Origin: a virus
Strand: one strand, 5' to 3'
DNA length: 21,066 bases
UHGV virus genome: UHGV-0139471
In this document: positions 3,895 through 21,066 of the stretch, piece by piece
Position numbering within the stretch: the first letter of the stretch is position 1
How the letters are laid out: each line of letters begins with the position of its first letter
Program-made: the position numbers and the translations under genes
Notes under the pieces: model-generated
The model's input: only the letters and a program-made list of their open reading frames with translations
What the model was told of the DNA's origin: nothing
The model's database searches: none

Positions 3895-3900
3895 TAAAAA

Positions 3901-6100: not shown

Positions 6101-6472
6101 ATGAGTAATGATCGCATGACAGTCGTGCCCGATTTCCTGGGCGAACTGGACGCCGGCGTATTCATGAACAAGATTGCGGCGGCTCTGAATACCACCGCGC
6201 TCGGCGTTCTGAACAACGGCAACAAAGGCAAAGTAGTCCTGACCTTTGATTTTGAGCGTATGGGCAACTCTGTTGAAGAGAAGCGCGTCAAGATTAAGCA
6301 CAAGCTGAACTACAGCACCCCAACTCCCCGCGGCAAAGCGTCGGAAGAGGACACCACCGAAACACCAATGTGGGTCAATAAAGGCGGCAAGCTCACCATC
6401 CTGCAGGAGGATCAAGGGCAACTCTTCGGTATCACCGGCACGGTGGACGGAAAGCTTAAAGCGGCTCAGTGA
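6101..6472 (+). CDS. hypothetical prophage protein (YfdP-like by size and position)
   Basis: ATG at 6101 with GAGAGGG Shine-Dalgarno; 123 aa; first gene of a rightward operon whose next two genes match the YfdQ/YfdR pattern of E. coli CPS-53. Confidence 0.65.
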   Translation: MSNDRMTVVPDFLGELDAGVFMNKIAAALNTTALGVLNNGNKGKVVLTFDFERMGNSVEEKRVKIKHKLNYSTPTPRGKASEEDTTETPMWVNKGGKLTILQEDQGQLFGITGTVDGKLKAAQ

Positions 6473-6528
6473 TCCGCACGCACAAATTCACTGATACCAC
6501 TTCGCTAATCAGTTAATAAGGAATTTTT

Positions 6529-7356
6529 ATGTCTCAGTTAGACAGCGGTACTTTTCAGCAGGTTAAAGACCTGGTGCTTTCCGGTTATCACCTGAACGAT
6601 ATCCACGGTCTGGCCTGCCCGACCGCCCTGTTACCACAAAATACAAGCGTTGAAAGCCTGGAGCGTTTTTCTTATGAGCGCTTCCGTTTCCGTGGAGCCA
6701 TGGACACAACCAGTATTGATGATTTCGTTCGCTATTCTGTTGGTTATGCCCAGGAAGAAGAAAAAGCCCGCTGCTTTATCGATGCGAACAACATGCTGGC
6801 CCGTTCTATCTTCAATATCGGCACGCTGGATAACCCAGGTCATGCTGACAACGTCGCCTCGATCAAGCTAAAAAAGACAGCGCCCTTCCGCGCGTTACTG
6901 GCGATCAACGGCGATCACCTTAATCAGAAGCAAATCGCCGAATGGCTCGAAGACTGGAGCGACTATCTCACTGCGTTCGATGCTGACGGACAGACAATGA
7001 AAATTGCACAGGCAGCGCAGGCGGTTCGCCGTGTCACTATCCAGCAAACTAATGCCGCCGATCATGAAGACGGTGATTTCAGCGGCAAAAAATCACTGAT
7101 GCAAAGTATCGAAGCCAGCAGTAAAGATGTTATGCCGGTCGCTTTTGAATTTATGTGTGTACCGTATGAGGGCTTGGGCGAGCGTCGTTTCAGTCTGCGC
7201 AACAGTCTGCTGAAAAGTAGCGACCCGGTTTTCGTTCTGCGTATTGTCCAACTGGAGGCCCAGGAAGAAGCGATCGCCAATGAGTTCCGCGATCTGCTGG
7301 TTGGCAAGTTCGACGGCAAGCCGGTAGAAACCTTTATCGGCAACTTCAAAGCCTGA
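6529..7356 (+). CDS. DUF2303-type prophage protein (YfdQ-like)
   Basis: 275 aa, AAGGAA Shine-Dalgarno; size and neighbourhood (followed by an HD-domain gene) match YfdQ of CPS-53 from memory. Confidence 0.7.
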   Translation: MSQLDSGTFQQVKDLVLSGYHLNDIHGLACPTALLPQNTSVESLERFSYERFRFRGAMDTTSIDDFVRYSVGYAQEEEKARCFIDANNMLARSIFNIGTLDNPGHADNVASIKLKKTAPFRALLAINGDHLNQKQIAEWLEDWSDYLTAFDADGQTMKIAQAAQAVRRVTIQQTNAADHEDGDFSGKKSLMQSIEASSKDVMPVAFEFMCVPYEGLGERRFSLRNSLLKSSDPVFVLRIVQLEAQEEAIANEFRDLLVGKFDGKPVETFIGNFKA

Positions 7357-7368
7357 TTGCTCTCCATT

Positions 7369-7392
7369 AAATCCCCGTCGTTGCGGGGATTT
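7369..7392 (+). terminator. perfect 9-bp hairpin (aaatccccg / cggggattt), possible partial terminator or attenuator
   Basis: Inverted repeat with 6-nt loop immediately after the stop of the YfdQ-like gene; the downstream tract is only weakly U-rich. Confidence 0.3.
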
Positions 7393-7488
7393 ATTAAAGC
7401 GTAATCCTGCAATTAATCGCCACCTGGCGAGGGATTCCTACACACAAAAATCAGCGCTGTGCAGAGCGCAATTAAATGGAGAAATACG

Positions 7489-8016
7489 ATGAGCTTTATT
7501 CAAACCTTCACAGGCAAGCACTTTAACTATCTGGATATCCAGCTGGATGCCATTGAGATCGAAGATATCGCTAACGCGCTCTCGAATATTTGCCGCTTTG
7601 CTGGCCATCTTCCGGAGTTCTACAGCGTTGGTCAGCACAGCGTGTTAACCAGCCACCTGGTACCACAGGAGTTTGCGCTTGAAGCACTTCTGCACGATGC
7701 CGCAGAGGCTTATTTGCAGGATATTCCAGCACCGCTTAAACGCCTGCTCCCGGACTACCGCGCCATTGAGGATCGGGTTGATGCTGCAATACGTCAGAAA
7801 TTCGGCCTACCTGCTGAGCAGCACCCGACCGTTAAATATGCCGACCTGGTGATGTTGGCCAGCGAACGTCGTGACTTTGAGATCGACGACGGTACTGTCT
7901 GGCCCATGCTCGAAGGCATTATTCCAACGGATCAATTCGTTATTAATCCGGTTCGCCCAGGTCAGGCCTATGGGATGTTCATGAACCGATTCCACCAGCT
8001 GATGGAGCGGCGCTAA
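7489..8016 (+). CDS. HD-domain phosphohydrolase (YfdR-like 5'-deoxynucleotidase family)
   Basis: ATG at 7489 with GGAGA Shine-Dalgarno (track ORF starts at an upstream GTG); His ... HD motif context (SVGQHSVL ... LLHDAAEAY) typical of HD phosphohydrolases; 175 aa. Confidence 0.75.
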   Translation: MSFIQTFTGKHFNYLDIQLDAIEIEDIANALSNICRFAGHLPEFYSVGQHSVLTSHLVPQEFALEALLHDAAEAYLQDIPAPLKRLLPDYRAIEDRVDAAIRQKFGLPAEQHPTVKYADLVMLASERRDFEIDDGTVWPMLEGIIPTDQFVINPVRPGQAYGMFMNRFHQLMERR

Positions 8017-8216
8017 TGCCACATATGAAAGTTAAAGAACTGGTCGCTGCAGCTTACGCTGCGGCACCAGATCTACCACCGGAAGCGGCAGAGTTAATGC
8101 GCAATATTGCTTCACGACTGGATGTAACGTTCATCGCCCTTACCGAAGCAATGGACCAAAACACAGCGCAGGCTGCCGTGTTGGCAGTCCTGAATGGGGT
8201 TAAAAACAATGGCTAA
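8016..8216 (+). CDS. hypothetical protein (66 aa)
   Basis: ATG overlaps the stop of the HD gene (TAATG); Ala-rich helical-looking peptide. Confidence 0.45.
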   Translation: MPHMKVKELVAAAYAAAPDLPPEAAELMRNIASRLDVTFIALTEAMDQNTAQAAVLAVLNGVKNNG

Positions 8217-8994
8217 AAACTCGATCGACGTGTACGGCGCCAGCGGCAAAACCAACGCCCTGTCGTTCGAACCGGAAAAGCTGCATTTAGTCACCGATCA
8301 GACCCACCCTCTCTACGATGAGCGGGTCCACCTGCCGATCGACGAAGGGATGGTTCTGAACATCAAGGAGCTGGGTGTACTGGAGCCGATTATCGTCTGG
8401 AAAGACCCTGAAACAGGGCTCACCTGCGTGGTTGTAGGCCGTCAGCGCGTTAAACATACCCTGGAGGCAAATAAACTCCTTCTGAAAGAAGGCAAAGACC
8501 CACTGCTTGTTCCTGGGGTCGTTAAGCGCGGCTCAGCAAATCAGATGGCTAAATACATGGTCAGCGAAAATGAAATTCGCCGACCTGATACACCGCTCGG
8601 CCGGGCTAAAAAAATGTCAGACGCGCTCGACCGCGGTCTCGATGAGGACGATATTGCGGTGTTATTTGGCTGCAGCGTTCAGACCGTTCGTGCAACGCTG
8701 TCCCTTCTCGATGCCACCCAGGCCGTCCGGGAAGCGGTGGAGTCTGGCACTGTTACCGTTACCCAGGCACGTCAGCTTGGCACGCTTCCCCCGGAAGAGC
8801 AGCGGGAAAAAGTGAAAGAGATTGAATCTGCGACCGCTGGGACTACCGGCCATGAAAAAGCCAGGCGTCAGCGCGCCGTGCTTGGCGAAACTAAGTCACG
8901 TCTCAAATCACGCAAAGAAATCACAAAAGCCCTTGAAGCTGCCAGTGGTGAATATGCTGATGCACTGCGCTGGGTGCTCGGGGAGGTTGTATGA
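8194..8994 (+). CDS. ParB-like nuclease-domain protein
   Basis: 266 aa; N-terminal LEPIIVWKDPETGLTCVVVGRQRVKHTLEA resembles the ParB/Sulfiredoxin arginine-rich box; an alternative ATG at 8209 has a better-placed GGGG Shine-Dalgarno. Confidence 0.55.
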   Translation: MGLKTMAKNSIDVYGASGKTNALSFEPEKLHLVTDQTHPLYDERVHLPIDEGMVLNIKELGVLEPIIVWKDPETGLTCVVVGRQRVKHTLEANKLLLKEGKDPLLVPGVVKRGSANQMAKYMVSENEIRRPDTPLGRAKKMSDALDRGLDEDDIAVLFGCSVQTVRATLSLLDATQAVREAVESGTVTVTQARQLGTLPPEEQREKVKEIESATAGTTGHEKARRQRAVLGETKSRLKSRKEITKALEAASGEYADALRWVLGEVV

Positions 8995-9560
8995 ACATCT
9001 CAACAGTAAACGAGCTCATTCAGTCGCTGGAGAGTGCGGGCGAGCTGTCAATCAAAGAGCGTAAGTATCTGGAGTTGGCGAAAGCTTATCAGCAGCTGGC
9101 TGCGGAGAATGTGGCGCTGGCAGCAGAAAACAAAATGGCTGTTGATGCGGTAACGGTTTTCTCAAACGTCACCCACGATATCACCGACATCATCTGTGAT
9201 GAACTTGGGCATGACCGTGTGGCTGAAATTGTCGCGGCCTATAACGACCTCGGCAACATGCCCGCCACTGATCGCATCGTAGCCGGGATTAAGGCCAGAG
9301 TCATTCCTGAAGGCTTTAAGCTGGTACCTGAGCAGATGTATCTGTCAGACGAAGATATTCAGGCAATCTGCAGGCAGTGTGGCAATGGCGATAAAAAAGG
9401 CTATGGCGATTACGAAGATGGCATTCTGTGGGTTGGTGAACTGAGCAATGACGGCGAGATGAAATACGGCCTGAATATTGCGAATGCTAATTACCCTGAA
9501 GAGGGTTCAATCACTGTGTTTGAGTTTGATGAACCGCTGCGCGAGGGGGCCGACAAATGA
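8991..9560 (+). CDS. hypothetical protein (189 aa)
   Basis: ATGA overlap with the upstream gene; no family recognised. Confidence 0.6.
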   Translation: MNISTVNELIQSLESAGELSIKERKYLELAKAYQQLAAENVALAAENKMAVDAVTVFSNVTHDITDIICDELGHDRVAEIVAAYNDLGNMPATDRIVAGIKARVIPEGFKLVPEQMYLSDEDIQAICRQCGNGDKKGYGDYEDGILWVGELSNDGEMKYGLNIANANYPEEGSITVFEFDEPLREGADK

Positions 9561-10048
9561 GCAGCGGAATCGAACTTATGCAGCATGCTCTGGGTGTCAA
9601 TGAGCGCAATAGAACGCCGTACCGAAATTATTTCCTCGCCGGAGATGGTCATACGGACAACGAGGAGTGGGAAAAACTGGTTTCTGATGGTTTCGCTACC
9701 TCCCGGCCAGCGCCTGACTTTGCGGTTAGCGGAACGCTCTATCACGTCACAAATAAAGGCGAAGAATTAGCTATTGCTGCGCTACCTGAACCGAAGAAAA
9801 AGACGCGATACGAAGAATACCTCGACGCTGATAGTTGCCTGTCATTCGGTGAATGGCTGTTGGGTTACCAGCTTCCTGAGGTCGAATATGACCGTCATGG
9901 AAAATGCAGAATGTTCCGGTGCCAATACGATGAATCTTATGGCTACCCGCGTCGTGATATTCAGGGCGAGTGGTGCCCGACAAAGAAAGCAGCCAAAGCC
10001 AGCTACAAAGAAGCGCTGCGCAAGTCTAAACAGGAGCGTGCAGCATGA
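9557..10048 (+). CDS. hypothetical protein (163 aa)
   Basis: ATGA overlap with the upstream gene; no family recognised. Confidence 0.6.
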   Translation: MSSGIELMQHALGVNERNRTPYRNYFLAGDGHTDNEEWEKLVSDGFATSRPAPDFAVSGTLYHVTNKGEELAIAALPEPKKKTRYEEYLDADSCLSFGEWLLGYQLPEVEYDRHGKCRMFRCQYDESYGYPRRDIQGEWCPTKKAAKASYKEALRKSKQERAA

Positions 10049-10353
10049 CAACTGATATCACCGAACTGGCGCAAAGAGAGAAATTCGAAGCGTGGTGGGA
10101 GCGCGAGTATAAACATCTCGAATCCTCGAAATATACCGATGCTGTGCCGCATATCAAATACGGCTTCTGGATGGCATATCAGGCCGGTGGTGCTGAGCTG
10201 GTAGAGGCGCTGGAGAAGGCGCAGCGTGCCAATAACTCAGCACCAGCCATATTGCGCCAGCTTGCCGAAGAGAAACAGAAACGCGGAGAGGTGGCGGCAG
10301 CGACCGCCTTCAACTACGCAGCGTCAGCACTGCAAAAGGAGCTGTCGAAATGA
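10045..10353 (+). CDS. hypothetical protein (102 aa)
   Basis: ATGA overlap with the upstream gene; no family recognised. Confidence 0.55.
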   Translation: MTTDITELAQREKFEAWWEREYKHLESSKYTDAVPHIKYGFWMAYQAGGAELVEALEKAQRANNSAPAILRQLAEEKQKRGEVAAATAFNYAASALQKELSK

Positions 10354-10580
10354 CCAGACCAACTACTGCGCAACTAAACGCTGCCTATGACCAATTTAAT
10401 TTTTGGTACGACAAAGCCAAAAAGTTGGATGAAGAATTAGCGAAAGCAGAAGAGCGCATCGCCGAGCTGGAGTCCCGCACCGTGAAGCTGCCGCAAGCTG
10501 TTAGCGCAGGCGGTCAGGGTTATCAGGAACAAGTCGAGCGGATACTAACTGCCGCTGGCATCAAGTGGGAGGTTGAGTGA
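10350..10580 (+). CDS. hypothetical protein (76 aa, coiled-coil-like)
   Basis: ATGA overlap with the upstream gene. Confidence 0.5.
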   Translation: MTRPTTAQLNAAYDQFNFWYDKAKKLDEELAKAEERIAELESRTVKLPQAVSAGGQGYQEQVERILTAAGIKWEVE

Positions 10581-10876
10581 TGGCGACCAAAGCGCAATTG
10601 CAAGGCCAATGCACGCGGTTGGAAAACGAAAACCGGGAACTTAGTCGCCTTTTGGCAAGGGCTGAGCGTGAGCTTAACAACAGACTGCTGGATGAAGAGT
10701 TACCGCCCGAGGAAATCCCGTACCGCGTTACCTGCTTAATGAAGTATCACAGCATGCCGTGGGAAGTGTTCTGGTGTTCTGAGCACAAGCGATGGATGGA
10801 TGAGATGGATAGTAGTTTTCCGTACTCAATGAGCGATAACACTTGCCCTGTATGCCGAGATGAGGAGGGCCAATGA
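10577..10876 (+). CDS. hypothetical protein with putative zinc-ribbon (99 aa)
   Basis: Overlapping start; Cys/His pairs (CSEH ... CPVC) suggest a small zinc-binding element. Confidence 0.55.
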
Positions 10877-11304
10877 CCAGCAAATTAACCAGAGAGCCAA
10901 TCACTCACGAATTGAAAATTTACCCTGAATTCTTCTCTGCTGTTTGTACTGGCGTTAAACGCGCAGAGCTACGCAAAAATGACCGTGATTATCGGGTAGG
11001 CGACACTCTCCACCTGCTGGAGACACCGCGCGGTAGCTGTAACCCGACAGGTGAATACATCAATGTGATAATCACCCATATCGCTGACGTTGGTGAATGG
11101 ATGACGGGTTATGTCCTGCTGAGTGTTAAGCGGGAAACGGTGGGCAGCGAGCCGATAGTGATGGACGGACTCGTTAAAGCCGTAGAGTTCTATGAGCAGG
11201 TTAAACGCGAAAATCCGCCAGTCGAAACAGGCGCATGGAAAGATGCTGTTGATTGGGTGCTGAAGGAAGCCTGCCGCGCCGCCATGCTCCAGTTGAGAGG
11301 ATGA
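10873..11304 (+). CDS. DUF3850-like (ASCH/PUA-fold) protein
   Basis: 143 aa; N-terminal [33 protein letters not shown] matches the DUF3850 signature as I recall it (K-x-F-E-I-R-K-N-D-R-D-Y-x-V-G-D). Confidence 0.55.
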
Positions 11305-11308
11305 AGAG

Positions 11309-11512
11309 ATGACTATCAGGCGTAAAAGTGGACTTAAGACTGTTTTATTTTTCTTTATTTTGTTGGTTTTAGTGATTCCAGTTTCACCAATACTTCTTAT
11401 TTGTTTTATAGGTCAAAAGGCTGATATTTTTCTAGGATTGTACGATAGTATGCTTCTTAGCCAAATCAGTCGCCTACATGACAAGATAAATCCTTATGAG
11501 GCGCGTGACTGA
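11309..11512 (+). CDS. small membrane protein (67 aa)
   Basis: GAGAGGA Shine-Dalgarno; one long hydrophobic segment (VLFFFILLVLVIPVSPILLICFI); first gene of an A+T-rich module. Confidence 0.45.
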   Translation: MTIRRKSGLKTVLFFFILLVLVIPVSPILLICFIGQKADIFLGLYDSMLLSQISRLHDKINPYEARD

Positions 11513-11655
11513 TGAAAACCGTAAAAGAAAATCCAGACGCCACTAATTATCGTGGTTTTTGGCGTGTAACCGTGTGGGCTTGTTTATTCTGTGTAATATT
11601 TTTCTGGTTGCCCGCTATTTCAGTAACCATTTATTACTTTTCCTCGGGGAGTTAA
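11512..11655 (+). CDS. very small membrane protein (47 aa)
   Basis: Below the track cutoff. ATG overlaps the upstream stop (TGATG) and its TAA overlaps the next ATG (TAATG); translation MKTVKENPDATNYRGFWRVTVWACLFCVIFFWLPAISVTIYYFSSGS has one hydrophobic helix. The competing frame is the 11559 TTG-start track ORF. Confidence 0.3.
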   Translation: MKTVKENPDATNYRGFWRVTVWACLFCVIFFWLPAISVTIYYFSSGS

Positions 11656-11912
11656 TGCGCCGTTACATCATTACCGATAAAGACATTATCGATGCTTTCC
11701 AGAGATGGTCTAGCCCTGAATTAAAAAACCAGAAAATGCATACCAGCTTCATACGTGAAGCTGTATGCCGCGCACATCCTGACAAGGTGATTCTTCAGTA
11801 TGACGTTCGCCAAAAGCTAAAGAATATGGCCTCGCGTGGTTTAGTTACTGAGGTGCGTTTAAGTCCTAACGCAACAGCCTGGATGATAATAAAAGGTGAT
11901 TCAAATGGATAA
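11655..11912 (+). CDS. hypothetical protein (85 aa)
   Basis: ATG at 11655 preceded by GGGGAG; the track ORF starts further upstream at a TTG. Confidence 0.45.
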   Translation: MRRYIITDKDIIDAFQRWSSPELKNQKMHTSFIREAVCRAHPDKVILQYDVRQKLKNMASRGLVTEVRLSPNATAWMIIKGDSNG

Positions 11913-12276
11913 AATTAAGACCAAAAGAAGCGAGCGCCGTTTGTCGCGTGACCTGATAGAGGAAGGGTTAAGGCTGGTGGCAGAACGTAGCGAGCGGGAA
12001 GGAGTGAACAAAGATACCGCTAAACGTCATGCTTCAGCCATCAGAGGAGTGATTCCGGCGCTGGGTGTAGTAAAGAGTAAGGTTGTGAAGCCGGGGGTTT
12101 GGGTTTCGCTTTATACCCGCAGCGATGCTACATCGACCGTCATCAGCAATATGAAGTTTACCGCCGTCATATTTGAGTGGGCCGGACAGCAGGAGTATGA
12201 AGATTCGGCATTTTACGCCGCTATCGCTTGTGCTATCAGAACTGCACTGTCTGTGCGTGGTGAAGTGAGGGGTTAG
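11905..12276 (+). CDS. hypothetical protein (123 aa)
   Basis: ATG at 11905 with AAGGTGA Shine-Dalgarno; overlaps the upstream stop by 8 nt. Confidence 0.5.
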   Translation: MDKIKTKRSERRLSRDLIEEGLRLVAERSEREGVNKDTAKRHASAIRGVIPALGVVKSKVVKPGVWVSLYTRSDATSTVISNMKFTAVIFEWAGQQEYEDSAFYAAIACAIRTALSVRGEVRG

Positions 12277-12277
12277 A

Positions 12278-12445
12278 ATGAACTTGGTTTTCTCTCTCAT
12301 TTTTTTAACGGGCTGCATACTGCTTGGCAGTATTTCTGTTTTTTTGTGGGGTGATGGTCGCAGGAAACTTAGCGTTGCATTTGCACTATTGGTTTTGATG
12401 TATGCATTTGCAGCCTGTATAAATTTATTTTCGGGGAGGTTGTGA
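12278..12445 (+). CDS. very small membrane protein (55 aa, two hydrophobic segments)
   Basis: Below the track cutoff. ATG 2 nt after the upstream stop, GAGGGG upstream; MNLVFSLIFLTGCILLGSISVFLWGDGRRKLSVAFALLVLMYAFAACINLFSGRL; TGA overlaps the recombinase ATG (TGATG). Confidence 0.35.
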   Translation: MNLVFSLIFLTGCILLGSISVFLWGDGRRKLSVAFALLVLMYAFAACINLFSGRL

Positions 12446-13323
12446 TGTTAAGCGATCTTCTTATCATGGTTGACCGCCGTGCTCAGGCGGTCAGTTTGCG
12501 CGAAAAAACAATTATTAACGAACGTCACGCCGTCCGTATGCTGGAGCCTGTTTTATCTCTTGGGGTACGCGCTGCGAGCGTACCTGATACATGGGTAAGA
12601 TACGCCGACCGTTGCATTGATAATGGGCTGGCGGCGTCTACGGTTCGCCAGCGCATCGATTGCGTTGCGGCGGTTGTAGCCTGGGTAATTCATGCTGATA
12701 TTAAATTCAAACCAGCCGCGCCGGGCTCTCTGAGCAGGATGCTTGATGCCATGCGTACAGCGGCAAGAGCTATAGGCAAGCGGATAAAGCGTCACAGGGC
12801 ATTGAGCAGGCCAGCCCGTGTAAGTGTTGACGAGTATTCTACGGTAGTGCGGGATATTGAGTCTTTACGGGATCCATACAGGGCCGCAGCCCGTATGATG
12901 CTGTGTTTTGGAATGAGGGCAACAGAAACGCTTTCACTGTCTCCATCATCAATTCTTTCAGGTGGGAAGTTGTTTGTTCCTGACCGGGAGACTAAAAATC
13001 ACTCCGATTTGCTTTTACCTTTGCCAATTAAATACATTCCTTTAATCGAGGAGTGGCTAAGCGTGATAGGTGAGTCAGAAATAAAGTACAACACGCTTGT
13101 AACGACGATTTCCCGCGCCGGGATTAAATGGCGCTGCCATGATTTAAGAAAATTATTCAGAACTTCCGCCGCCGTGCGTGGTGAGGATTATCTTGCAACA
13201 GAATTGATATTAAATCACGCAGTGAAGGACGTTCCGAGCGTTTACTTACAATCTCCACCGTTTGCGGCAATGAGGCGAGTTTTAAACAATTCGATTGAAG
13301 AATATTTACAGGTTAAAGGGTAG
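12445..13323 (+). CDS. divergent tyrosine recombinase (integrase/invertase family)
   Basis: About 292 aa; GGGGAGG Shine-Dalgarno 5 nt upstream of ATG 12445; catalytic-residue pattern readable: Arg (GMRATETL), H-x-x-R (CHDLRKLF), downstream His and Tyr (ILNH ... SVYLQ). Short for a phage integrase; no obvious arm-binding N-domain. Confidence 0.65.
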   Translation: MLSDLLIMVDRRAQAVSLREKTIINERHAVRMLEPVLSLGVRAASVPDTWVRYADRCIDNGLAASTVRQRIDCVAAVVAWVIHADIKFKPAAPGSLSRMLDAMRTAARAIGKRIKRHRALSRPARVSVDEYSTVVRDIESLRDPYRAAARMMLCFGMRATETLSLSPSSILSGGKLFVPDRETKNHSDLLLPLPIKYIPLIEEWLSVIGESEIKYNTLVTTISRAGIKWRCHDLRKLFRTSAAVRGEDYLATELILNHAVKDVPSVYLQSPPFAAMRRVLNNSIEEYLQVKG

Positions 13324-13326
13324 GGA

Positions 13327-13584
13327 ATGGAAAAATCAGCGATTAAAGATAATGATATTATGTATCAAAAGAAGTATCCGAGAGATTGTTTGTTTAAATT
13401 GCTTCAACTACGCACTAATTTAAAAGCGAAGCCAGATATTTACCGGATAGAAATGATTAACCGCAGCGGTGATAAGATTTTGATGGGAGGGCGGCAAACA
13501 ACACAGGAGGCGATTTCTCTTTATCAGGATATTGCGACACTTAGCCCGTCAGAAGTGGAGGCGGCATTCAGTAGCATGGTCTAA
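13327..13584 (+). CDS. hypothetical protein (85 aa)
   Basis: Immediately follows the recombinase; followed by a strong terminator. Confidence 0.5.
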   Translation: MEKSAIKDNDIMYQKKYPRDCLFKLLQLRTNLKAKPDIYRIEMINRSGDKILMGGRQTTQEAISLYQDIATLSPSEVEAAFSSMV

Positions 13585-13603
13585 GAGCAGACCACAAAAA
13601 CGA

Positions 13604-13628
13604 GCCCGGCATCTGCCGGGTTTTTTTA
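13604..13628 (+). terminator. rho-independent terminator
   Basis: GC stem cccgg / ccggg (13605-13620) followed by TTTTTTT (13621-13627). Confidence 0.65.
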
Positions 13629-14662
13629 TGCCTGAACATTGCATCACAAATAATGTAAGTAAAAAGTTAAATATCGATTAACACAAAAGCAACATAATAC
13701 ACGTTAAATCATGTGACGGGATTGTTAAATGTATGTTGTGTGGATAATTTTATAAGCATCATGAAATGATGGTTAAGTAAATGATTGAAGTCTCGTTTTA
13801 TGCAAAATAACCAAAAATAAATTTAACCTATAAAATTCAGTGAATTATGTAATTTTGATTGTTTTTCATTCAAAAGTGACTCGATTTTTGGCGTCAATAC
13901 CTTGCATTTTTGCGCTGAGGAAAAATAAAAATAATTAAGTGAAATATTCATTAATTTAATCAATAGGTTATAGTTGTGAGGCAAACGGATGTATAAGGTT
14001 TGACATTCAGTGTCAGCACGAGTAAAAGACCAAAAAGAGGGCAATTAAAGCCATTTTATTTAAAAATGTTTCCACTTGAAATAAAGCCGGACATTTACCA
14101 CCTTACCTATAGCTATACGAATCAATAAGCTATGTTATTTTTCGTGGTGTTTACTGTTTTATTCGCCGGAAATGTTTCTGTAATCTCATCTGACCAGTGC
14201 GTTTAGCATCTTGACATGAGTTTGTTATGAGTTAGCAGAAAGGGGGAAAGCATAAGCATGTGGGGTGGCGGAAAAGATAAAATCGCGCTCAGGCTTGTTT
14301 CCACCAGCGATTGCAGGAATCTATCACTTTTCACTGATGTTTGATAACGGTTAAATATTTGACCGTTCAATTATGTTTGCTCTGTTACATATTCATTGCG
14401 TTAAAAATGAGCATAACAAAAGCAACAAATATCAAACATTCATGTTGGCACGTTAAATGTTATCCATATTGAAAGTGAGTAGTGATGCGTGGTTGGGGCG
14501 ATATTGACCACTAACTTAAATCGTGCAGGTGGGTAGTTTCATGCTGCTTATCCACAGATTTAGCCTTGTGCGTAATATTGACACGTATTACCGCTGGAGC
14601 CGTTTCTGTAATTAGTCAGGCCATTGCCTTTAAATCACCTCTATATAAAGGAGGTGAACTTC

Positions 14663-15616
14663 ATGGCTTACGGGCGTCAGTTCGAAATAACCGTTAACTG
14701 CACAGATGGAGAGACGATCCACATTACTGATGTGGACGTTGATTTCTCGTCTGTTCGCGACGATGAGAAAGAGCCAAACGAGGCCGATTTAACGTTGTGG
14801 GGTTTAACACCACAGACTCAGAACGCCATCGCTCAGGCAGGGTCAACCGTCAGTGTTGCCGCTGGCTATATAGATGAAGGGATGTTCACCCTGTTTCAGG
14901 GCGAACTTATCAGTGCCGTGACCATCAAGCCTAATGAGGTATACGGCCTGAAAATGAAAATCTACGAAGCGCTGATTCCGTTCCGGGCCAGCGTAACATC
15001 GCGCACGTTTCGCAAAGGTCAGAGCCTTAAAGATGCTGTTTTACAGGTAGCGTCCGATATGGGGATGGGTTGTCAGTTCTCTAAATCAGCTTCCTCTCTC
15101 ACCCTGGCTAAAAGCGTCAGCGCTGCGGCATTGTCCCGCGATGTGCTTACCAGCCTCTGCAAGCCAGTTAATGCCAACTGGTCGCTTCAGTATCAGTCAA
15201 TCATTGTCACTGCCGGTGATTCAATTCTTACCGGTGCCGCTGTTTTCTCCCCTAAAACAGGCTTGCTTGGTGCGCCGCTTCTGAAAATTCACTCCCCGAA
15301 ACGCACGAAGAAAAAGAACCCTTCCGAAAAAGAGCAGATCCAGAAGAAGCACGACAAAAGCATAACTACCTATGTCTGGCCCCCTAAGGGCTCGCAGGTT
15401 GACTACTCAAAAGGTGCTCGCCGCCAGATGGGGGTTATTGAGGCTGTTACATGGGAATCGTTGCTTTATGGCGGGGTTGAGATTGGCGAACAGGTAGAGC
15501 TTTCTTCTCCATCAATGGGCGAAGGCTGGATGGTTATTGTGAAGAAGATTTCCCATCGCTTTAGTACCCGCGACCGTCAGGCGTGGTCATCGTCATGGGA
15601 GGGCATCATTGCATGA
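14663..15616 (+). CDS. phage structural protein, first gene of baseplate-like operon (possible hub component)
   Basis: ATG at 14663 with strong AGGAGGT Shine-Dalgarno (track ORF starts at an upstream TTG); 317 aa; stop overlaps the spike gene ATG. Hub assignment rests on position only. Confidence 0.55.
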   Translation: MAYGRQFEITVNCTDGETIHITDVDVDFSSVRDDEKEPNEADLTLWGLTPQTQNAIAQAGSTVSVAAGYIDEGMFTLFQGELISAVTIKPNEVYGLKMKIYEALIPFRASVTSRTFRKGQSLKDAVLQVASDMGMGCQFSKSASSLTLAKSVSAAALSRDVLTSLCKPVNANWSLQYQSIIVTAGDSILTGAAVFSPKTGLLGAPLLKIHSPKRTKKKNPSEKEQIQKKHDKSITTYVWPPKGSQVDYSKGARRQMGVIEAVTWESLLYGGVEIGEQVELSSPSMGEGWMVIVKKISHRFSTRDRQAWSSSWEGIIA

Positions 15617-16323
15617 GAGCCGGTAGCCAGATTCAGGCCATTGTTGAGCAGGCGCTTAATTCAGCGCTTTTTTCGCTTGAGGCAACGATTGTTTCCGTCA
15701 GCGGCGGGCGGGCAACTGTCCAGCCATCCCCAAAACGCATATTCGGTGACAACTCGGAGCCGATTGCTTATCCGGCTGTTGAAAACGTTCGTTTAGTTTC
15801 GCTCGTCTGGGATAGCGGTAAGTCAGGCGTTAGCGGGCGAGTTTCTCCGGGGGATGAATGTCTCCTTATCGCACTTTCTCACGGAGACGGCGACGAGCCA
15901 GACCATAAGACCATTTCAAACGCTATCGCTATATGTGGATTTTCAGACGTTGCCAGCCACCAGATGCCGGATGAGGCAGGATTAAGAGTGTTCAGCGGTA
16001 GCGCCTTTATTGAATGGGATGACGGAAGCATTAAGGGCGATACCGGGCAAGGCGCAACTTTCGAGTTTACGGGCAACAAAATGACCGTTAACGCGCCGGG
16101 CGGTATCGATATGACAGCGCCAATGACAACCATAAACGGGAATTTGACGATTTCAGGATCCATCAGTCAGGGCGCAGAAGGTGGCGGCAATGCTGACTTT
16201 GGCGGCAACGTCACCATAACCGGCGATAGCAAAGCCGCTGACCACATCAGCGGCGGTAAGTCCTTCAATTCTCACACGCATAAAGAAAACGGTGAGGGCG
16301 GTCAGACCGACGCCCCGACATAA
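15613..16323 (+). CDS. baseplate spike protein (gpV / Mu gp45-like)
   Basis: ATG 15613 in ATGA overlap with the upstream stop; N-terminal OB-fold-like segment with GRVSPGDECLLIALSHGDGDEP (P-x-GD-x-V-L-V-x-F-x-GD pattern of V-type spikes); Gly-rich beta-helix-like C-terminus ending in an H-x-H apex motif (NSHTHKENGEGG). Confidence 0.65.
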   Translation: MRAGSQIQAIVEQALNSALFSLEATIVSVSGGRATVQPSPKRIFGDNSEPIAYPAVENVRLVSLVWDSGKSGVSGRVSPGDECLLIALSHGDGDEPDHKTISNAIAICGFSDVASHQMPDEAGLRVFSGSAFIEWDDGSIKGDTGQGATFEFTGNKMTVNAPGGIDMTAPMTTINGNLTISGSISQGAEGGGNADFGGNVTITGDSKAADHISGGKSFNSHTHKENGEGGQTDAPT

Positions 16324-16332
16324 GGAAAAACC

Positions 16333-16710
16333 ATGAAATTAAATGACCATGCGGCACAAATCGCACTTTCTAACGGTGGCTTTCTGATGGCGGGTGACTA
16401 CAGCACAACCGTTAGCAAAGGCGAGATTATCAACATCACTGAGCGAACCGGGCTTGTAGTTGAGCGTGTCGAGTGCATCACCCTGATTAACGCGCCGTTG
16501 TATATGGTCATGGCGACGTGCAGGGAGAACAAAGACCAGTACATGCCATTTTACAGCGATTTGCCGTTTGAATTACCGCATCAAGCGGCGATGGCGCAAA
16601 TGTTAAATGATGCAGGCGAAGGCTTTGACCTTGATGACCTGCTGGATATTGAGTCGCTGGATTCTGCTGTGACGGTCGTCCACGTTGAAAAATGGATGCA
16701 CACCGAATGA
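16333..16710 (+). CDS. hypothetical protein (125 aa) within baseplate operon
   Basis: AAGGAAA Shine-Dalgarno; acidic C-terminus; no family recognised. Confidence 0.55.
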   Translation: MKLNDHAAQIALSNGGFLMAGDYSTTVSKGEIINITERTGLVVERVECITLINAPLYMVMATCRENKDQYMPFYSDLPFELPHQAAMAQMLNDAGEGFDLDDLLDIESLDSAVTVVHVEKWMHTE

Positions 16711-16925
16711 ACATCACAACAACTCAGTATCGACAGGGTTTAAAGGGCTGTTTCATTTCCGCAGAGAGGCCGCAGGCTGGCGACTCTCTGACGCTGGTAA
16801 TGCCAACATGCAGAGGGCGGCGCATTATCCCTGTTGGCGAGGTTCAGCGGGTCGAGGCTGTAGGTACTAGCCGTTGCCTCGTATGGGTTTCAAAGCTGGC
16901 ATTCGTTGAGGGGATGAATTACTGA
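16707..16925 (+). CDS. hypothetical small Cys-containing protein (72 aa)
   Basis: ATG at 16707 in ATGA overlap with the upstream stop (track shows a longer form from 16692); its stop overlaps the next ATG. Confidence 0.45.
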   Translation: MNITTTQYRQGLKGCFISAERPQAGDSLTLVMPTCRGRRIIPVGEVQRVEAVGTSRCLVWVSKLAFVEGMNY

Positions 16926-17272
16926 TGCTGGACATTATGCAGGATGAAAGCGGAGTCATTCTCCAAAATGGCGATTTGGTGTTGGATGGTGGCATTGATG
17001 GCATTGCACAGCAGGCAGAAATCCGCGTAGGTACTAATCGCGGCGAGTGGTGGCTTGATGAAACTCAGGGGTTGCCGTGGTTGCCTGGCATTATGGCGTC
17101 ACGTCTGCCGGTTTCGATTGTATCGAACATGATTAACGCAGAGGCTCGGCGAACTTCTGGTGTGACTGATGCAAGAACCACAACCATCAATGATGTTAAG
17201 GGGGATTACACGATCCGCTTTGCGGTTTATGTCGGTGCCGATAGTACGGAGGTAACGAGTGGAATTAATTAA
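16925..17272 (+). CDS. baseplate wedge protein (gp25/GpW-like or related small baseplate protein)
   Basis: 115 aa; segment RVGTNRGEWWLDETQGLPWLPG fits the T-x-x-GE ... P-x-x-G pattern of gp25-type proteins; lies directly before the large wedge-like gene. Confidence 0.5.
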   Translation: MLDIMQDESGVILQNGDLVLDGGIDGIAQQAEIRVGTNRGEWWLDETQGLPWLPGIMASRLPVSIVSNMINAEARRTSGVTDARTTTINDVKGDYTIRFAVYVGADSTEVTSGIN

Positions 17273-18668
17273 TGATGGCGGCTGGCACGGTGCCAGACTG
17301 CCAGAGCTGCGCGGCGACATTTACCAGAAATTGCGCGACCTTCTAGGGAATATAAGCCCGGACGGTGATTCCCTGATTGGTCAGGTTATGGCGGTTGTCG
17401 CTGAAAATGACCTGAATATAGTGGAGGCCATCGGCTGGACGTTTGCTGGTTTCTTCATTTCATCAGGTGAAGGCATCCAGCTTGACGGTATAGGCGAGGG
17501 GTTCACGCTTCCTCGCTATGGCTTAACCCGTTCATCTGCCGATGTGGTTTACCTGCTGGCTTCAGGGCAGGTAATCGCGTCTGGTGAGACTTTCACTATC
17601 TCCGGTATTTCTGGTGACTGGTCGCCGTCAGGCAGTATTCAGGCCAACGGTAAAAGTGCTACCGGGTTTGTGCTGGAGATTAAGTCTGATGCTATCACCA
17701 CGGGAAATACCTTCACCATATCCATCAACGGTAAGCCATATTCAACGCAGTACCAGACAGGCGATACGTCTGATTCGATTTTATCCAGGCTGTATCCCAT
17801 CATTGCCGCCGCTGATACGTCAGTAACCACATACTCAACAGAATACGGGTTATTGCTTTATGCAGCGGATGGTAAATCGCTCATCCAGTTTTCATTTTCT
17901 GATGATGTTTTTTCCATCGTCCGTACTGGAATGCCCGCAACAACATGGTATGACAGCGATACTGAGTTTCCTGATGTTCGATTCGGCTATGTGGCAACAG
18001 ATGACATTCTGATTCTAGCCAACGGTAGTAAAGGCTTTGAAATAGAAGATGACGAGCAATACAGAGAGCGTCTTTTCGAAGCAGCGGAGGCAGGGAGAAA
18101 GAATGTCAGCGCATCAAGACCGGGCATAAAAAACGCCGTTCTAGCTGTTGCTGGCGTGAGTTACGTCACTGTTAACACCAACAGAGGCATTGAGACAGAT
18201 GCTGATGGTCTGCCGGGGAAATCAGTTCAGGTGTTTGTTGCTGGGGGGGATAGCGATGCTATAGCGCAGGCCATATATGACGCGGCAGCGGCTGAGTGCG
18301 GTTTCTACGGCAACACATCGGGTACAGCAACTGACGGTACAACTACCGAAACAGTGTATTTCACTCGCCAGAGCTTCCAGCTTGTCTATGTTTCCGTTTC
18401 CGGTGATACATGGGATGCAGAGACAACAGGCAAGCCAGACGATTACGAGAGCGTAGCTAAAAGCGTTATCACTGGCTATTTCTCACAGCTTGAAATGGGG
18501 CGTGACGTTTTCGCAGGTCAAATATCTGCCCGTTTGGTTACGGCTTTTCCGACGATGACGGATGTAACAGTAACGGTAGGTACTTCTGAATCACCAACCG
18601 GAAAAACCGTTCCCATAAGTAGCGGTGTTGTCGCAGTTACAGATTCTACTTCTGTGGTGGTGTCGTAA
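17259..18668 (+). CDS. large baseplate wedge protein (J-like by position)
   Basis: 469 aa; GTG start with GGAGG at 6 nt spacing; synteny (after the W-like gene, before an I-like-sized gene); no motif confirmed by eye. Confidence 0.5.
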   Translation: MELINDGGWHGARLPELRGDIYQKLRDLLGNISPDGDSLIGQVMAVVAENDLNIVEAIGWTFAGFFISSGEGIQLDGIGEGFTLPRYGLTRSSADVVYLLASGQVIASGETFTISGISGDWSPSGSIQANGKSATGFVLEIKSDAITTGNTFTISINGKPYSTQYQTGDTSDSILSRLYPIIAAADTSVTTYSTEYGLLLYAADGKSLIQFSFSDDVFSIVRTGMPATTWYDSDTEFPDVRFGYVATDDILILANGSKGFEIEDDEQYRERLFEAAEAGRKNVSASRPGIKNAVLAVAGVSYVTVNTNRGIETDADGLPGKSVQVFVAGGDSDAIAQAIYDAAAAECGFYGNTSGTATDGTTTETVYFTRQSFQLVYVSVSGDTWDAETTGKPDDYESVAKSVITGYFSQLEMGRDVFAGQISARLVTAFPTMTDVTVTVGTSESPTGKTVPISSGVVAVTDSTSVVVS

Positions 18669-19423
18669 TGGAACCATCAATTAAAAAACCGGGTCAACTG
18701 GCAACTGAACGACTTACCTCAAAGGTCAGATTACAGAAAAATATCGACCTCGTTTCCGGTATCAAGGCCAACCAGCAGGGCATGGTTGATGCACTGGACT
18801 ATCTGAAAAAGGGTTTCTCAATTACTGATTCTTCGGGTCTTTTACTTGATGCATGGGGGGAGAGGTTCGCTATACCGCGAGAGGGCCGCGACGATGATAG
18901 TTACAGGATAGCTCTCTTGCAGGGTGCAGGGACGCAATCTGTTTCGCTTCAGTCACGCCGCGCTGTCGGTGGATTCATCCAGTTAGCCTACGGAATTGCA
19001 TGGCTGCGACTGAACAGGGTAGGGCTGACCACTGGCGCGGTGGGTGCGGCTTTCAACCGCGTACCGTTACGTGCTGTTTTCGTCCATTGTGGCGCGATGG
19101 CTCCAGATATCGAACTGCCGGAAACGCTGGTTGCGGCAACTTTTGCCGGGGATATATACAGCGCTGCAATACCTCCTAACGTCAAACTAACCCACCTCGC
19201 GCCAATGTTCCCCGGTAATGCGTTTCCGGCTGTGTGGGGTGGTATCAAGTACGAGAAGACGCAAAAAACCGTGATGGCTACAGCAACCAAAGGGATCCGT
19301 GTCACGGCGACAAAGTCACTTTTGACCCGGATAGCAGCTACACAAACCATTAATGAAAATGAGCTTGTGGAGCCATTCAACACGCTTGTAACAGTCAAAA
19401 AGATGAAGGTGACAAATGGATAG
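18668..19423 (+). CDS. baseplate/tail protein (gpI-like by position)
   Basis: 251 aa; TAATG overlap with the upstream gene; assignment by synteny only. Confidence 0.45.
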   Translation: MEPSIKKPGQLATERLTSKVRLQKNIDLVSGIKANQQGMVDALDYLKKGFSITDSSGLLLDAWGERFAIPREGRDDDSYRIALLQGAGTQSVSLQSRRAVGGFIQLAYGIAWLRLNRVGLTTGAVGAAFNRVPLRAVFVHCGAMAPDIELPETLVAATFAGDIYSAAIPPNVKLTHLAPMFPGNAFPAVWGGIKYEKTQKTVMATATKGIRVTATKSLLTRIAATQTINENELVEPFNTLVTVKKMKVTNG

Positions 19424-19649
19424 CTGGGCCAATACTGACAAAACTTACGCTGGTCAAGGTGGTGCTGATATTCCAAACAAGCAAGAGCCATCAGAGGAAA
19501 TGCAGGCTACCGGGTTCGCGCCGACCTACTTTGATGTAAATGGCAATCTGGTGTTTGGGGATGGGATAAGCGCTCAGGTAATGAATTACATCCTCAACGA
19601 CCTGTACAAAAAATATCAGGAGCTTTTAGCCAGGGTAGAAACACCATGA
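19416..19649 (+). CDS. small tail-associated protein, paralog A (77 aa)
   Basis: Shares GFAPTY ... G-x-L-x-x-GD ... N-x-I-x-NDLY with the next gene; overlaps the upstream stop. Confidence 0.5.
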   Translation: MDSWANTDKTYAGQGGADIPNKQEPSEEMQATGFAPTYFDVNGNLVFGDGISAQVMNYILNDLYKKYQELLARVETP

Positions 19650-19882
19650 ATACATTTTCGACCGTTGCTCGTAATTATCCTGTAAGTGGCGGAATTTATC
19701 CGAGCAAGAAACAACCATCGGCAGCGAAACAGGCCGATGGCTTTGCGCCAACTTACATTAATGCAGGCGGAAAATTGATTGAAGGGGATCCGGTTGACGT
19801 GGCGGAGCTTAACTTCATTTTTAACGACCTGTACGCGCAGGCGGCACACATTGACCAGCTTCTTACGGCTAAGGGGAAATAA
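19646..19882 (+). CDS. small tail-associated protein, paralog B (78 aa)
   Basis: ATGA overlap with paralog A; same conserved motifs (DGFAPTY, GD, NDLY). Confidence 0.5.
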   Translation: MNTFSTVARNYPVSGGIYPSKKQPSAAKQADGFAPTYINAGGKLIEGDPVDVAELNFIFNDLYAQAAHIDQLLTAKGK

Positions 19883-20514
19883 TGGCATTAACACCAGATG
19901 AGCTGATTGCGATATCAGACCTTGAGAAAGCACAGATTACAGACTCTGCTGTAGTGCCTGATTGGGTTCTTCCTGCTGAAGTCAGGGGCAGTAGCGCGCC
20001 AATAAACGGTATTCCGTACCCTCAGCACACCATTGACGTGTTTGGCGGGCTTCTCACTGGCGAATGGTCGCTTAAATTTCAGAACCCGTTACAGCGCGTT
20101 GTGTGCGATTTGGAGATATTCCATGGAGAGAATGCGCCAGATTCGACGCCACCAGACTTATCAGCGTTACAATTGACGGCGACCGGCTTTGATAAAGCTG
20201 TGATTTTTTGCCCCGCAAAGACGGTTACAGATGCAGTGCCGGTAAACTTTATGGGGCTGGCTGTTTCCGGCGTTACACCAGTGTACAGGCTGGGAGGAAA
20301 ACGCAGATTTCTGGAGCAGTCTGGAATGGTTGTTATCCCGCTTACCGTGATTCTACTGTCAACACAGCCGCTGACCAGTCAGGAAACAAGCAGGGCATTA
20401 TCCGTCACGCTGAAGCGCAGGAATGAGAATCAGATGACTGTAGCGCCAATTATCAGCGGAATGGTCTACAGTAACCCGCTACCTTCAGCCCGAGATATTG
20501 CGCAGGCGTCGTGA
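19882..20514 (+). CDS. hypothetical tail-associated protein (210 aa), last gene of the coupled operon
   Basis: TAATG overlap with paralog B; no family recognised. Too small for a canonical long tail fibre. Confidence 0.5.
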   Translation: MALTPDELIAISDLEKAQITDSAVVPDWVLPAEVRGSSAPINGIPYPQHTIDVFGGLLTGEWSLKFQNPLQRVVCDLEIFHGENAPDSTPPDLSALQLTATGFDKAVIFCPAKTVTDAVPVNFMGLAVSGVTPVYRLGGKRRFLEQSGMVVIPLTVILLSTQPLTSQETSRALSVTLKRRNENQMTVAPIISGMVYSNPLPSARDIAQAS

Positions 20515-20598
20515 CCGCTGAGAAATAAAAAACTCAATCTCTGATTTTGTGTCAACATTTCCCCGGTTTGTTATCAACAATTCGGGGATTTGTCTTTT

Positions 20599-20862
20599 AT
20601 GAAAGCAACAGCGCGTAAAAAACCAGCCTTCAAAGACTTCTACGAAAATGGCATGTTTTCAAGAGTCATTGCTACTCGCACCAATAATGGCAGGTGGCAA
20701 CTGTGCGGAATGCACAGAAATGGAGAAGCCGTGATATTTATTGAGGCAGCAAGAGGGGGGATAAGAGAGTGGTCTAGCCTGGAGTATTTATCCGAATTTT
20801 GTGATTCGATTGGGGTGGTTTTGTGGGAAGTTCACAGGGGGAAAAACAAAGTACAGGGGTAA
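20599..20862 (+). CDS. hypothetical protein (87 aa)
   Basis: ATG at 20599 (track ORF starts at TTG 20590); preceded by an inverted repeat tcccc ... gggga and followed by a terminator. Confidence 0.45.
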   Translation: MKATARKKPAFKDFYENGMFSRVIATRTNNGRWQLCGMHRNGEAVIFIEAARGGIREWSSLEYLSEFCDSIGVVLWEVHRGKNKVQG

Positions 20863-20876
20863 GAATTTTAAAATCA

Positions 20877-20904
20877 CCTCACTACGTTTTTGTAGTGAGG
20901 TTTT
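20877..20904. terminator. bidirectional terminator-like hairpin between convergent genes
   Basis: Stem cctcactac / gtagtgagg with loop gttttt; T-run downstream on the plus strand and A-run upstream, so a U-tract exists in both orientations. Confidence 0.55.
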
Positions 20905-20926
20905 GATAAATTATAAACTTGATTAA

Positions 20927-21066
20927 TTATTCAGAAGGAGGTTCATTCATCGCTATTTGAATCTGATTTTCCGCCTGTTCCAGCATACCAATACCGGACG
21001 TGTAATCAGGTGAAAACTCATACGAGCCGTAAAACTGCCAGGACACCCCATCAAAACTGCTGAACA
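20927..21066 (-). CDS. C-terminal end of a convergent minus-strand gene (partial, unknown function)
   Basis: Reverse-strand frame open from the window edge to TAA at 20929..20927 (... FSSFDGVSWQFYGSYEFSPDYTSGIGMLEQAENQIQIAMNEPPSE*); not in the ORF track because it is truncated. Confidence 0.35.
   Translation of the reverse strand, partial: FSSFDGVSWQFYGSYEFSPDYTSGIGMLEQAENQIQIAMNEPPSE

Follow-up and report, generated by a model that had tools for sequence, protein, structure and literature searches.

The baseplate operon of contig UHGV-0139471 is probably one half of a bisected contractile tail carried by an uncultured prophage lineage

The virus contig UHGV-0139471 (21,066 bp; hereafter the window, the whole stretch of DNA analysed) carries at positions 14663–20514 ten plus-strand open reading frames (ORFs) encoding a hub, a spike with an HxH motif, W-, J- and I-like proteins, two paralogues resembling a fibre N terminus, a 210-aa protein and two small lineage-specific proteins. 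Of the nine junctions, eight are overlaps and one leaves a gap of 9 nt. Stop and start codons overlap as ATGA at 15613, 16707 and 19646, TGATG or TAATG junctions lie at 16925, 18668 and 19882, and overlaps of 8 and 14 nt lie at 19416 and at 17259, the GTG start of J. We infer from these overlapping stop/start codons that the ten genes are translationally coupled. An initial reading of the letters, made without database searches (the sequence-only reading), had described this coupled chain and its abrupt start after about 1 kb of A+T-rich DNA, and both descriptions held. It had also pointed out that sheath, tube, tape-measure and long-fibre genes are missing, and we found none in the 21,066 bp. 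It left three explanations standing: the other tail genes lie outside the window, they were displaced from a defective prophage, or the operon is a reduced tail-derived module.

The operon opens with a 317-aa protein (14663–15616) of the gp27/Pam3 gp19/E217 gp41 type. It matched phrog_196 (1e-37) and, in the PDB, phi92 gp137 (5e-14), further hub proteins and Pam3 gp19 (4e-3), with an additional match to PF22759 (1e-5) slightly under the cut-off; these similarities identify it as a predicted trimeric hub of the gp27/Pam3 gp19 type. The next gene (15613–16323) encodes a putative central spike of the P2 gpV type, 236 aa long with a C-terminal HxH motif (SHTH). It is 30% identical (2e-22) to the annotated ‘baseplate spike’ of the Dibbivirus AAM37 (Pantoea phage vB_PagM_AAM37) and matches TIGR01644, the P2 gpV C terminus, under the cut-off (5e-6); a sequence search of the PDB gave no match. 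The HxH motif is held as SHTH, GHKH, QHQH and AHRH in four diverged homologues, including those of Escherichia coli ECONIH4, AAM37 and the related locus L053 (loci fetched for comparison carry L numbers). The V-type spike with an HxH apex proposed from the letters alone stays putative, and its start moves from 15583 to the ATG at 15613.

A 115-aa protein (16925–17272) of the gpW/T4 gp25/Pam3 gp21 type matched Pam3 gp21 (3.5e-7) and gp87 (2e-6) in the PDB, phrog_120 (4e-12) and, in precomputed annotation, PF10934, as a predicted gp25/gpW-type sheath initiator would. It is followed by a 469-aa wedge protein J (17259–18668) of the gp6 or ‘wedge 2’ type, with matches to Pfam Baseplate_J (8e-9, above the cut-off), phrog_6 (1e-17), wedge protein 2 of PDB entry 9ndy (3e-20) and Pam3 gp22 (1e-9), and by a 251-aa candidate peripheral wedge protein (18668–19423) in the position of gpI, ‘wedge 1’ or Pam3 gp23. 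The latter gave a profile match to phi92 gp146 (1.2e-7), weak matches to ‘wedge 1’ proteins and 92% hhalign probability with AAM37 gp26; its assignment comes from an N-terminal core motif and gene position, the AlphaFold2 model (pLDDT, a per-residue confidence score, of 41) being unusable. Together the two are predicted to form a wedge of J/gp6-like and I/gp7-like proteins. The hub, W-like, J-like and I-like identities first read from the letters are thus upheld by PHROG, Pfam, PDB and hhalign matches.

Between spike and sheath initiator lie an acidic 125-aa protein (16333–16710) and a 72-aa protein (16707–16925), both lineage-specific. The sequence-only reading had listed two unexplained small genes here; they are real and conserved and have no assigned function, and the second settles at 72 aa. 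This 72-aa gene keeps equal length in ECONIH4 and L053 with a ratio of nonsynonymous to synonymous substitution (dN/dS) of 0.07, is intact in E. coli CX12 and in L003 though unannotated there, and had no family match in Pfam, PHROG and further profile searches. Distal to the I-like gene are two paralogues of 77 and 78 aa (19416–19882; phrog_24124), mutually 37% identical (2e-17). Each corresponds to the N-terminal ~66 aa (residues 1–66; 2e-12) of AAM37 gp27, the protein next after the I-like wedge protein in Dibbivirus, and they are probably stand-alone fibre-attachment adaptor domains, judging from this match. The final gene of the chain, p210 (19882–20514; 210 aa, dN/dS 0.04), is also lineage-specific: it has 83 homologue clusters, every named one from Enterobacterales, and no relation in the PDB, in Pfam or to Dibbivirus proteins, gp28 included. 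From its position only, it is probably a distal baseplate protein or an adaptor for the receptor-binding protein.

To gauge selection, we compared window genes with the related prophage of E. coli ECONIH4 (75% identical), at which distance synonymous sites are saturated (proportion of synonymous differences, pS, 0.58–0.80). Length was kept and the proportion of nonsynonymous differences (pN) was 0.08–0.24 for the ten operon genes, for the recombinase gene described below and for two conserved small genes, p85 and p87. Wherever it could be computed, dN/dS for this set was 0.04–0.15. Within the operon it was 0.04–0.10 in the seven computable genes, and pN was 0.10–0.17 in the remaining three. 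By these measures, purifying selection acts on all ten operon genes and on the recombinase, p85 and p87. Of the two small genes, p87 (20599–20862, plus strand; 87 aa) follows the operon after an 84-nt gap, is in all relatives and had no family match in a profile search; to the ten genes of the sequence-only reading it adds an eleventh conserved one. A hairpin behind it (20877–20904), read by eye, fails terminator-scanner criteria. The other, p85 (13327–13584, plus strand; 85 aa, dN/dS 0.15), lies 3′ of the recombinase gene in all relatives and had no family match in Pfam or PHROG searches.

The tail genes that the window lacks are carried by its relatives. Its right half is 99.9% identical to a family of ~34.5-kb prophages found in Klebsiella, Raoultella, Citrobacter, Enterobacter and, rarely, E. 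coli. These prophages run from early genes through the integrase, a ~1.08-kb spacer and the baseplate operon to an opposite-strand block of receptor-binding gene, Ref and ERF, and then to a second operon that starts ~6 kb downstream and encodes terminase, head, sheath, tube, tape measure, tube initiator, plug and lysis proteins. In near-identical prophages, sheath, tube and tape-measure genes lie ~15–20 kb beyond the baseplate operon, past the head genes. Loci L004 and L005, identical to the window over its last 552 bases (20515–21066), continue past its end with opposite-strand genes for a 95-aa protein, a 582-aa SGNH-type receptor-binding protein, the Ref nuclease and ERF, and beyond ERF with both terminase subunits (small and large), portal and MuF. 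Contigs 97–99.9% identical to the operon carry terminase, portal and capsid through tape measure, tube initiator and plug on the same contig. At least ten IMG/VR contigs combine J (97–99% identity) with the sheath gene (98–99%); one of 37.6 kb has the hub at 5.5 kb, the terminase small-subunit gene (terS) at 17.4, sheath at 27.1, tape measure at 29.5 and plug at 32.3 kb. The whole prophage is present in two complete E. coli chromosomes, CX12 (91–94% identical) and ECONIH4 (75%), where the head genes are followed by tail terminator, DUF3383/phrog_205 sheath, tube, chaperone, tape measure, DUF4282, a Dit-like tube initiator (PF21821), a Pam3-gp18-like plug (PF22479), holin, lysozyme and DUF2514.

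Every sufficiently long relative (75–99.9% identical) proved to have sheath, tube, tape-measure, tube-initiator and plug genes in the same genome. The first of the three explanations, that the other tail genes lie outside the window, is therefore correct. The sequence-only reading had added that a complete head and tail set immediately downstream in canonical order would make this an ordinary myovirus late region. Such a set is indeed downstream, but it is neither immediate nor canonical: in the relatives the baseplate genes stand ahead of terminase, and the break in the tail cluster falls between plug and hub. The two tail clusters are complementary and have no duplicated parts, so both would be needed for one tail.

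The window is itself a complete metagenome contig (ENA ERZ1743192 NODE_117, coverage 6.43), and because it is a whole, short contig, the lack of a gene in it is no evidence about the genome. Two parental sequences can be told apart in it. Positions 1–11123 are 99.84% identical to a lambdoid prophage contig, k141_1297, and positions 10885–21066 are 99.92% identical to ERZ1743372 NODE_9, a 132-kb contig from another sample; the 239-bp segment common to both (10885–11123), inside a DUF3850 gene, is the crossover point. The left half encodes Dam, replication proteins, Cro/CI, YfdP/YfdQ and a ParB–helix–turn–helix (HTH) protein, and beyond the window the lambdoid parent has Q and lysis genes and a left operon that ends in a normal Arm-type integrase. 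The 143-aa protein that spans the junction is on record solely in the window’s own contig, whereas neighbouring proteins each occur in 51–61 collection blocks. We regard the left half as a probable assembly chimera, or else a rare recombinant, from these comparisons. Since the junction is unique to one low-coverage contig, the left half should not be taken for an ‘accessory module’ that displaced tail genes, and the defective prophage of the sequence-only reading finds no support. At the other end, the contig stops exactly where a variable receptor-binding cassette starts, a typical assembly break.

The ends of the prophage were set by a 19-bp direct repeat, ATTTAACATAATATACATT, that flanks the element in E. 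coli, Raoultella scottii and viral contigs and delimits ~34.5 kb (L001 17253–17271 and L002 21875–21893; L011 17953–17971 and L016 10896–10914; L052 1698–1716; L047 17072–17090). The first early gene starts 65 nt after one copy, and the other copy follows DUF2514 at a distance of ~190 nt. The last large gene of the early-left operon (12445–13323, plus strand) encodes a 292-aa tyrosine recombinase that matched phrog_1 integrase (8e-18) and, at the cut-off, Pfam Phage_integrase (3e-6), with pN 0.14 and pS 0.78 against ECONIH4. No second recombinase was found between the attachment (att) repeats of the relatives in annotation, precomputed Pfam matches and the genes scanned, and this protein is probably the integrase of the ~34.5-kb prophage. 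It lies ~3.5 kb inside attL rather than adjoining it. We had considered an attP in the spacer beside the integrase and rejected it, the ends being the 19-bp repeats ~3.5 kb 5′ of the integrase and past the lysis genes. A search for an excised circular form among contigs of ~34–35 kb led to two that were fetched, which were integrated or too short. A scan of genome contigs returned one representative genome only, R. scottii; by megablast the operon had no match among 50,697 phage records and 72,556 plasmids; and we found no description of the lineage in the literature.

Between the recombinase block and the hub lies a non-coding, A+T-rich spacer of ~1.08 kb (13585–14662; 33–38% G+C) with no ORF longer than 73 aa. 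An Rfam scan of the whole window returned nothing relevant and nothing in the spacer. Near its start, an intrinsic terminator (13602–13630, plus strand; a 9-bp G+C-rich stem, then a T run) closes the early-left operon and is kept in five of five aligned relatives. The length of the spacer is constant in all relatives, and islands within it are 70–88% identical to ECONIH4 despite saturated synonymous sites. By blastn it matched none of the 50,697 phage records and 72,556 plasmids, and thus no known origin or plasmid in those sets. Its best-conserved part is the final ~100 bp (80–88% identical to ECONIH4), which contains a bipartite element (14588–14635, plus strand) that we propose as the putative late promoter of the baseplate operon. 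The element consists of TTACCGCT (14588–14595), N7, TTTCTGTAAT (14603–14612) and, 18 nt after CTGTAA, a −10-like TTAAAT (14630–14635), and ends ~27 nt ahead of the hub ATG.

In the general form TTACCGCT(GG)-N7-TTTCTGTA, the element is common to the hub operon and the receptor-binding gene. Across the 24 fetched loci, the bipartite pattern (≤2 mismatches) was found only 5′ of these two genes. At the inverted receptor-binding gene it stands in the sense orientation and is followed 18 nt on by TCTAAT or TTTAAT (for example, L017 13872–13894, minus strand). The core TTACCGCTGG recurs, inverted, 62–75 nt 5′ of terS and of the Dit-like (tube-initiator) gene, where it is invariant in six diverged relatives (17296–17305 and 31648–31657 in L047/UViG), and the 8-mer has 7 copies in the 37.6-kb contig against ~1.15 expected. 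From this distribution we suggest that the elements are late promoters dependent on an activator, through which the separated virion operons would come on together; the shared element is a candidate site for a late activator, of a type not described before.

Taken together, we consider it highly probable that the operon is the real baseplate half of an ordinary Mu/Pam3-type contractile tail from an uncultured temperate prophage lineage, and that its apparent incompleteness comes from a bisected tail layout seen through a short contig: sheath, tube and tape measure are absent from the window because it is a 21-kb contig and the tail genes of the lineage are laid out in two parts. An ancestral contiguous tail cluster, with the plug beside the hub as in Dibbivirus and Pam3, would have been cut between plug and hub by a block of lysis, integration and early genes. 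The circular order would then read plug, lysis, attP, small early genes, integrase, 85-aa gene, terminator, A+T-rich spacer and hub, and integration would place the two halves of the tail cluster at opposite ends of the prophage. Transcription of the early-left operon would stop at 13602–13630, and the baseplate operon would be read from its own activator-dependent late promoter at 14588–14635. The element shared by the hub, the receptor-binding gene, terS and the tube initiator would allow the separated virion operons to be switched on together.

Several observations weigh against this account. The window ends at 21066, and completeness is read from relatives 75–99.9% identical, that is, from other molecules; likewise, the making of contractile-tailed particles is predicted from the genes. 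At terS and at the Dit-like gene, TTACCGCTGG points the opposite way to the copy at the hub, and a simple sigma-70 consensus scan finds no plus-strand promoter in the spacer. Among the genes inside the att-bounded element, we recognized none for replication (initiator, helicase or primase) and none for a cI-type or other repressor, and some copies could therefore be dependent or defective. A promoter by itself does not account for ~900 bp of spacer, which include three DnaA boxes: TTATCCACA, the consensus, on the minus strand at 13739–13747 (at −849 from the promoter element in 17 relatives); TTATCCATA at 14460–14468 on the plus strand, kept at −128 and reading TTATCCACA in most relatives; and TTATCCACA, again the consensus, at 14548–14556 on the plus strand (at −40), invariant in aligned relatives including the most distant, L053. 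Exact boxes number 2 in the window against 0.12 expected, and the three boxes hold fixed positions in 17 relatives, where they are nearly the sole exact boxes per ~20-kb locus. The spacer could thus be a replication origin or a DnaA-sensing control region of this ~34.5-kb temperate myovirus lineage, which we consider unlikely. If so, the phage would use host DnaA to replicate or to gate the expression of its late tail genes, and the odd position of the baseplate operon would follow from an origin/integrase block inside the tail cluster.

Just 5′ of the middle DnaA box, TGGCACG (14447–14453) resembles a sigma-54 −24 motif and is invariant in five diverged relatives; read by eye, the −12 GC is absent. 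We also considered an invertible promoter switch, flipped by the tyrosine recombinase through a 15-nt inverted repeat (13752/14537), and rejected it because five aligned relatives are collinear, DnaA-box positions and orientations are the same in 17, and the repeat arms outside the DnaA-box core are not conserved in ECONIH4.

Three other explanations of the missing genes were weighed against the bisected tail. The window might be a natural hybrid in which a lambdoid immunity, replication and Q region recombined onto a myovirus late region through the DUF3850 segment, and this would supply the replication and repressor functions seemingly absent from the 34.5-kb element, where none is recognizable. 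The crossover falls in a 239-bp stretch of both parents, the type of site where phage mosaics form, and the DUF3850 reading frame is intact across it. Yet the junction was seen once, in a metaSPAdes-style contig of 6.4× coverage, a 239-bp repeat is a typical cause of short-read misjoins, and the hybrid would be without attL and the element’s own early genes; we judge a hybrid possible but doubtful. The same junction bears on the idea of a defective remnant, in which an accessory or lambdoid module took the place of the sheath, tube and tape-measure genes or deleted them. The window does join a lambdoid early region straight to the operon with no other tail gene, and the E. coli copies sit amid insertion sequence (IS) elements, CX12 with IS1 at its left border. 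That join, however, exists in one contig only, with flanking proteins in 51–61 collection blocks; in all relatives examined, the stretch between the 19-bp repeats that contains the operon also contains complete head, tail and lysis genes; and the low dN/dS of seven operon genes and low pN of the other three are not those expected of a remnant, which leaves this explanation very improbable.

The operon might instead be a reduced tail-derived machine without sheath or tube of its own, either a satellite’s baseplate that redirects a helper’s tail or a fragment akin to a tailocin or an extracellular contractile injection system (eCIS). It is self-contained and tightly coupled, a promoter-like element of its own precedes it, and the receptor-binding cassette beside it can be swapped. 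Against this, it encodes a sheath initiator, useful only with a sheath; the tube initiator and plug, which dock on the hub in Pam3 (PMC9942802), are encoded only in the element’s other operon; that operon has capsid, portal and terminase genes, unlike tailocins and eCIS; and the operon was not found without the remaining genes except in short contigs. With complementary clusters free of duplicates and purifying selection besides, the reduced module of the sequence-only reading is not supported, and we hold it to be extremely unlikely. The bisected tail of a complete prophage remains our preferred explanation. It describes a widespread uncultured lineage of Enterobacterales prophages, ~34.5 kb long, with Dibbivirus/PB1-like virion genes and a bisected tail cluster. 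It also carries a caution for genome scans: short contigs can mimic a sheathless tail module or a lambdoid hybrid, simply since variable cassettes break assemblies and short shared segments cause misjoins.

The receptor-binding cassette, on the strand opposite to the baseplate operon, is freely swapped among relatives (minus strand; L004 11351–13099, L001 29375–31171, L011 30394–31683, L053 15211–15933, L054 11504–12700 and L055 15125–16111). Its types include a beta-helix spike, an SGNH esterase, a pyocin-knob fibre with chaperone, Gp53-like and Collar proteins, and the receptor-binding proteins keep a 15-residue N terminus, MSENNYGALMMKSAL. Free swapping of cassettes behind a conserved N terminus may interest host-range engineers. 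The neighbouring ERF is unusually long (515–546 aa; minus strand, L011 32329–33957 and L001 31817–33415) and has a P1-type Ref nuclease as its partner; only residues ~68–204 belong to the ERF domain, and the ~330 C-terminal residues have no assignment. The slot between ERF and terS holds variable toxin–antitoxin cargo (L001 34448–34582, L055 18995–19587, L054 15339–15936): some relatives carry Hok/Gef, one carries HicAB and one an HTH protein with Gp49 (HigB-like). In RefSeq, the portal gene (PF06381, Phage_portal_3; L001 36842–38215) is named ‘anti-CBASS protein Acb1 family protein’ in both E. coli genomes, probably a naming error.

In CX12 and ECONIH4, the prophage is in the same island near hipBA. 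Directly outside attL in these genomes (ECONIH4, L011 12510–17807; CX12, L001 11063–16037) are tyrosine recombinases of 516 and 466 aa and, beside them in both, a 788-aa protein without family match. This trio resembles a Tn554-like or three-gene integration module of a separate island. We rejected it as the integration module of the element, given its position outside attL and its absence in L053, L055 and L052.

The closest cultured phages are Dibbivirus, PB1/E217-like phages and Felixounavirus, at 21–39% protein identity; overall, we found none in culture nearer than ~25–35% at the protein level. Dibbivirus (Pantoea phage vB_PagM_AAM37 and Xanthomonas phage DIBBI) has the same set of modules and the same order within them: terS, terL, portal, MuF, capsid, DUF4054 adaptor, terminator, DUF3383-type sheath, tube, chaperone, tape measure, Dit-like protein, plug, hub, spike, W, J, gp26 (I-like) and gp27, and then distally an SGNH-type fibre followed by an oppositely oriented ERF block. 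In AAM37 the tail cluster is contiguous, with tape measure, gp20 (Dit-like), gp21 (plug), gp22 (hub), gp23 (spike), gp24 (W), gp25 (J), gp26–gp28 and gp29 (fibre) in sequence, whereas the present lineage has lysis genes, att, early genes, integrase and the 1-kb spacer between plug and hub. It further differs in the two extra small genes between spike and W, in a fibre-anchor domain that has become two stand-alone paralogues, in the inverted receptor-binding gene and in possessing an integrase, of which there is none in the part of Dibbivirus that was read. A genus would call for ~70% nucleotide similarity genome-wide and for collinearity; with no nucleotide match to phage records, 21–39% protein identity and a non-collinear tail, the lineage does not fall within the genus Dibbivirus.

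In Pam3, gp17 (tube initiator) to gp24 (fibre) are consecutive, with the same order and roles, and cryo-electron microscopy showed the tube initiator and plug docking on the hub–spike before the sheath initiator and wedge join (PMC9942802). Part for part, the lineage corresponds one-to-one with the minimal baseplates of Pam3, phi92 and E217 (tube initiator, plug, hub, spike, sheath initiator, two-protein wedge and fibre), with direct sequence matches to Pam3 gp18, gp19, gp21 and gp22 and to phi92 gp137, gp139 and gp146. Those phages are lytic and keep the genes consecutive, whereas here the parts are split over two operons at opposite prophage ends, and there are extra, lineage-specific proteins of 125, 72, 210 and 87 aa. 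Terminase, portal, MuF and major capsid genes are present, and the sheath and tube genes do not adjoin the baseplate operon; this sets the element apart from capsid-less tail machines of the R-type tailocin, eCIS or type VI secretion system (T6SS) kind.

A partition of tail genes is familiar from the temperate myovirus P2, whose late operons V-W-J-I-H-G and FI-FII-E-T-U-D separate a wedge/spike unit from sheath, tube and tape measure and are read from activator-dependent late promoters. P2 keeps its hub, gpD, in the sheath cluster, with the other cluster directly beside it; in the present lineage the hub heads the wedge operon, and the clusters are parted by head genes or by the att/integrase block. 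The promoter element also differs from the P2 Ogr-type dyad. Sequence likeness to P2 is confined to the gpV C terminus (TIGR01644, sub-threshold), and the sheath is of the DUF3383/PB1–Dibbivirus type, which, with the place of the hub, puts the lineage outside the Peduoviridae (P2-like phages). Scattered tail genes are familiar from P1 and T4 as well. Given the precedents of P2, P1 and T4, the split layout is a variant rather than a new principle.

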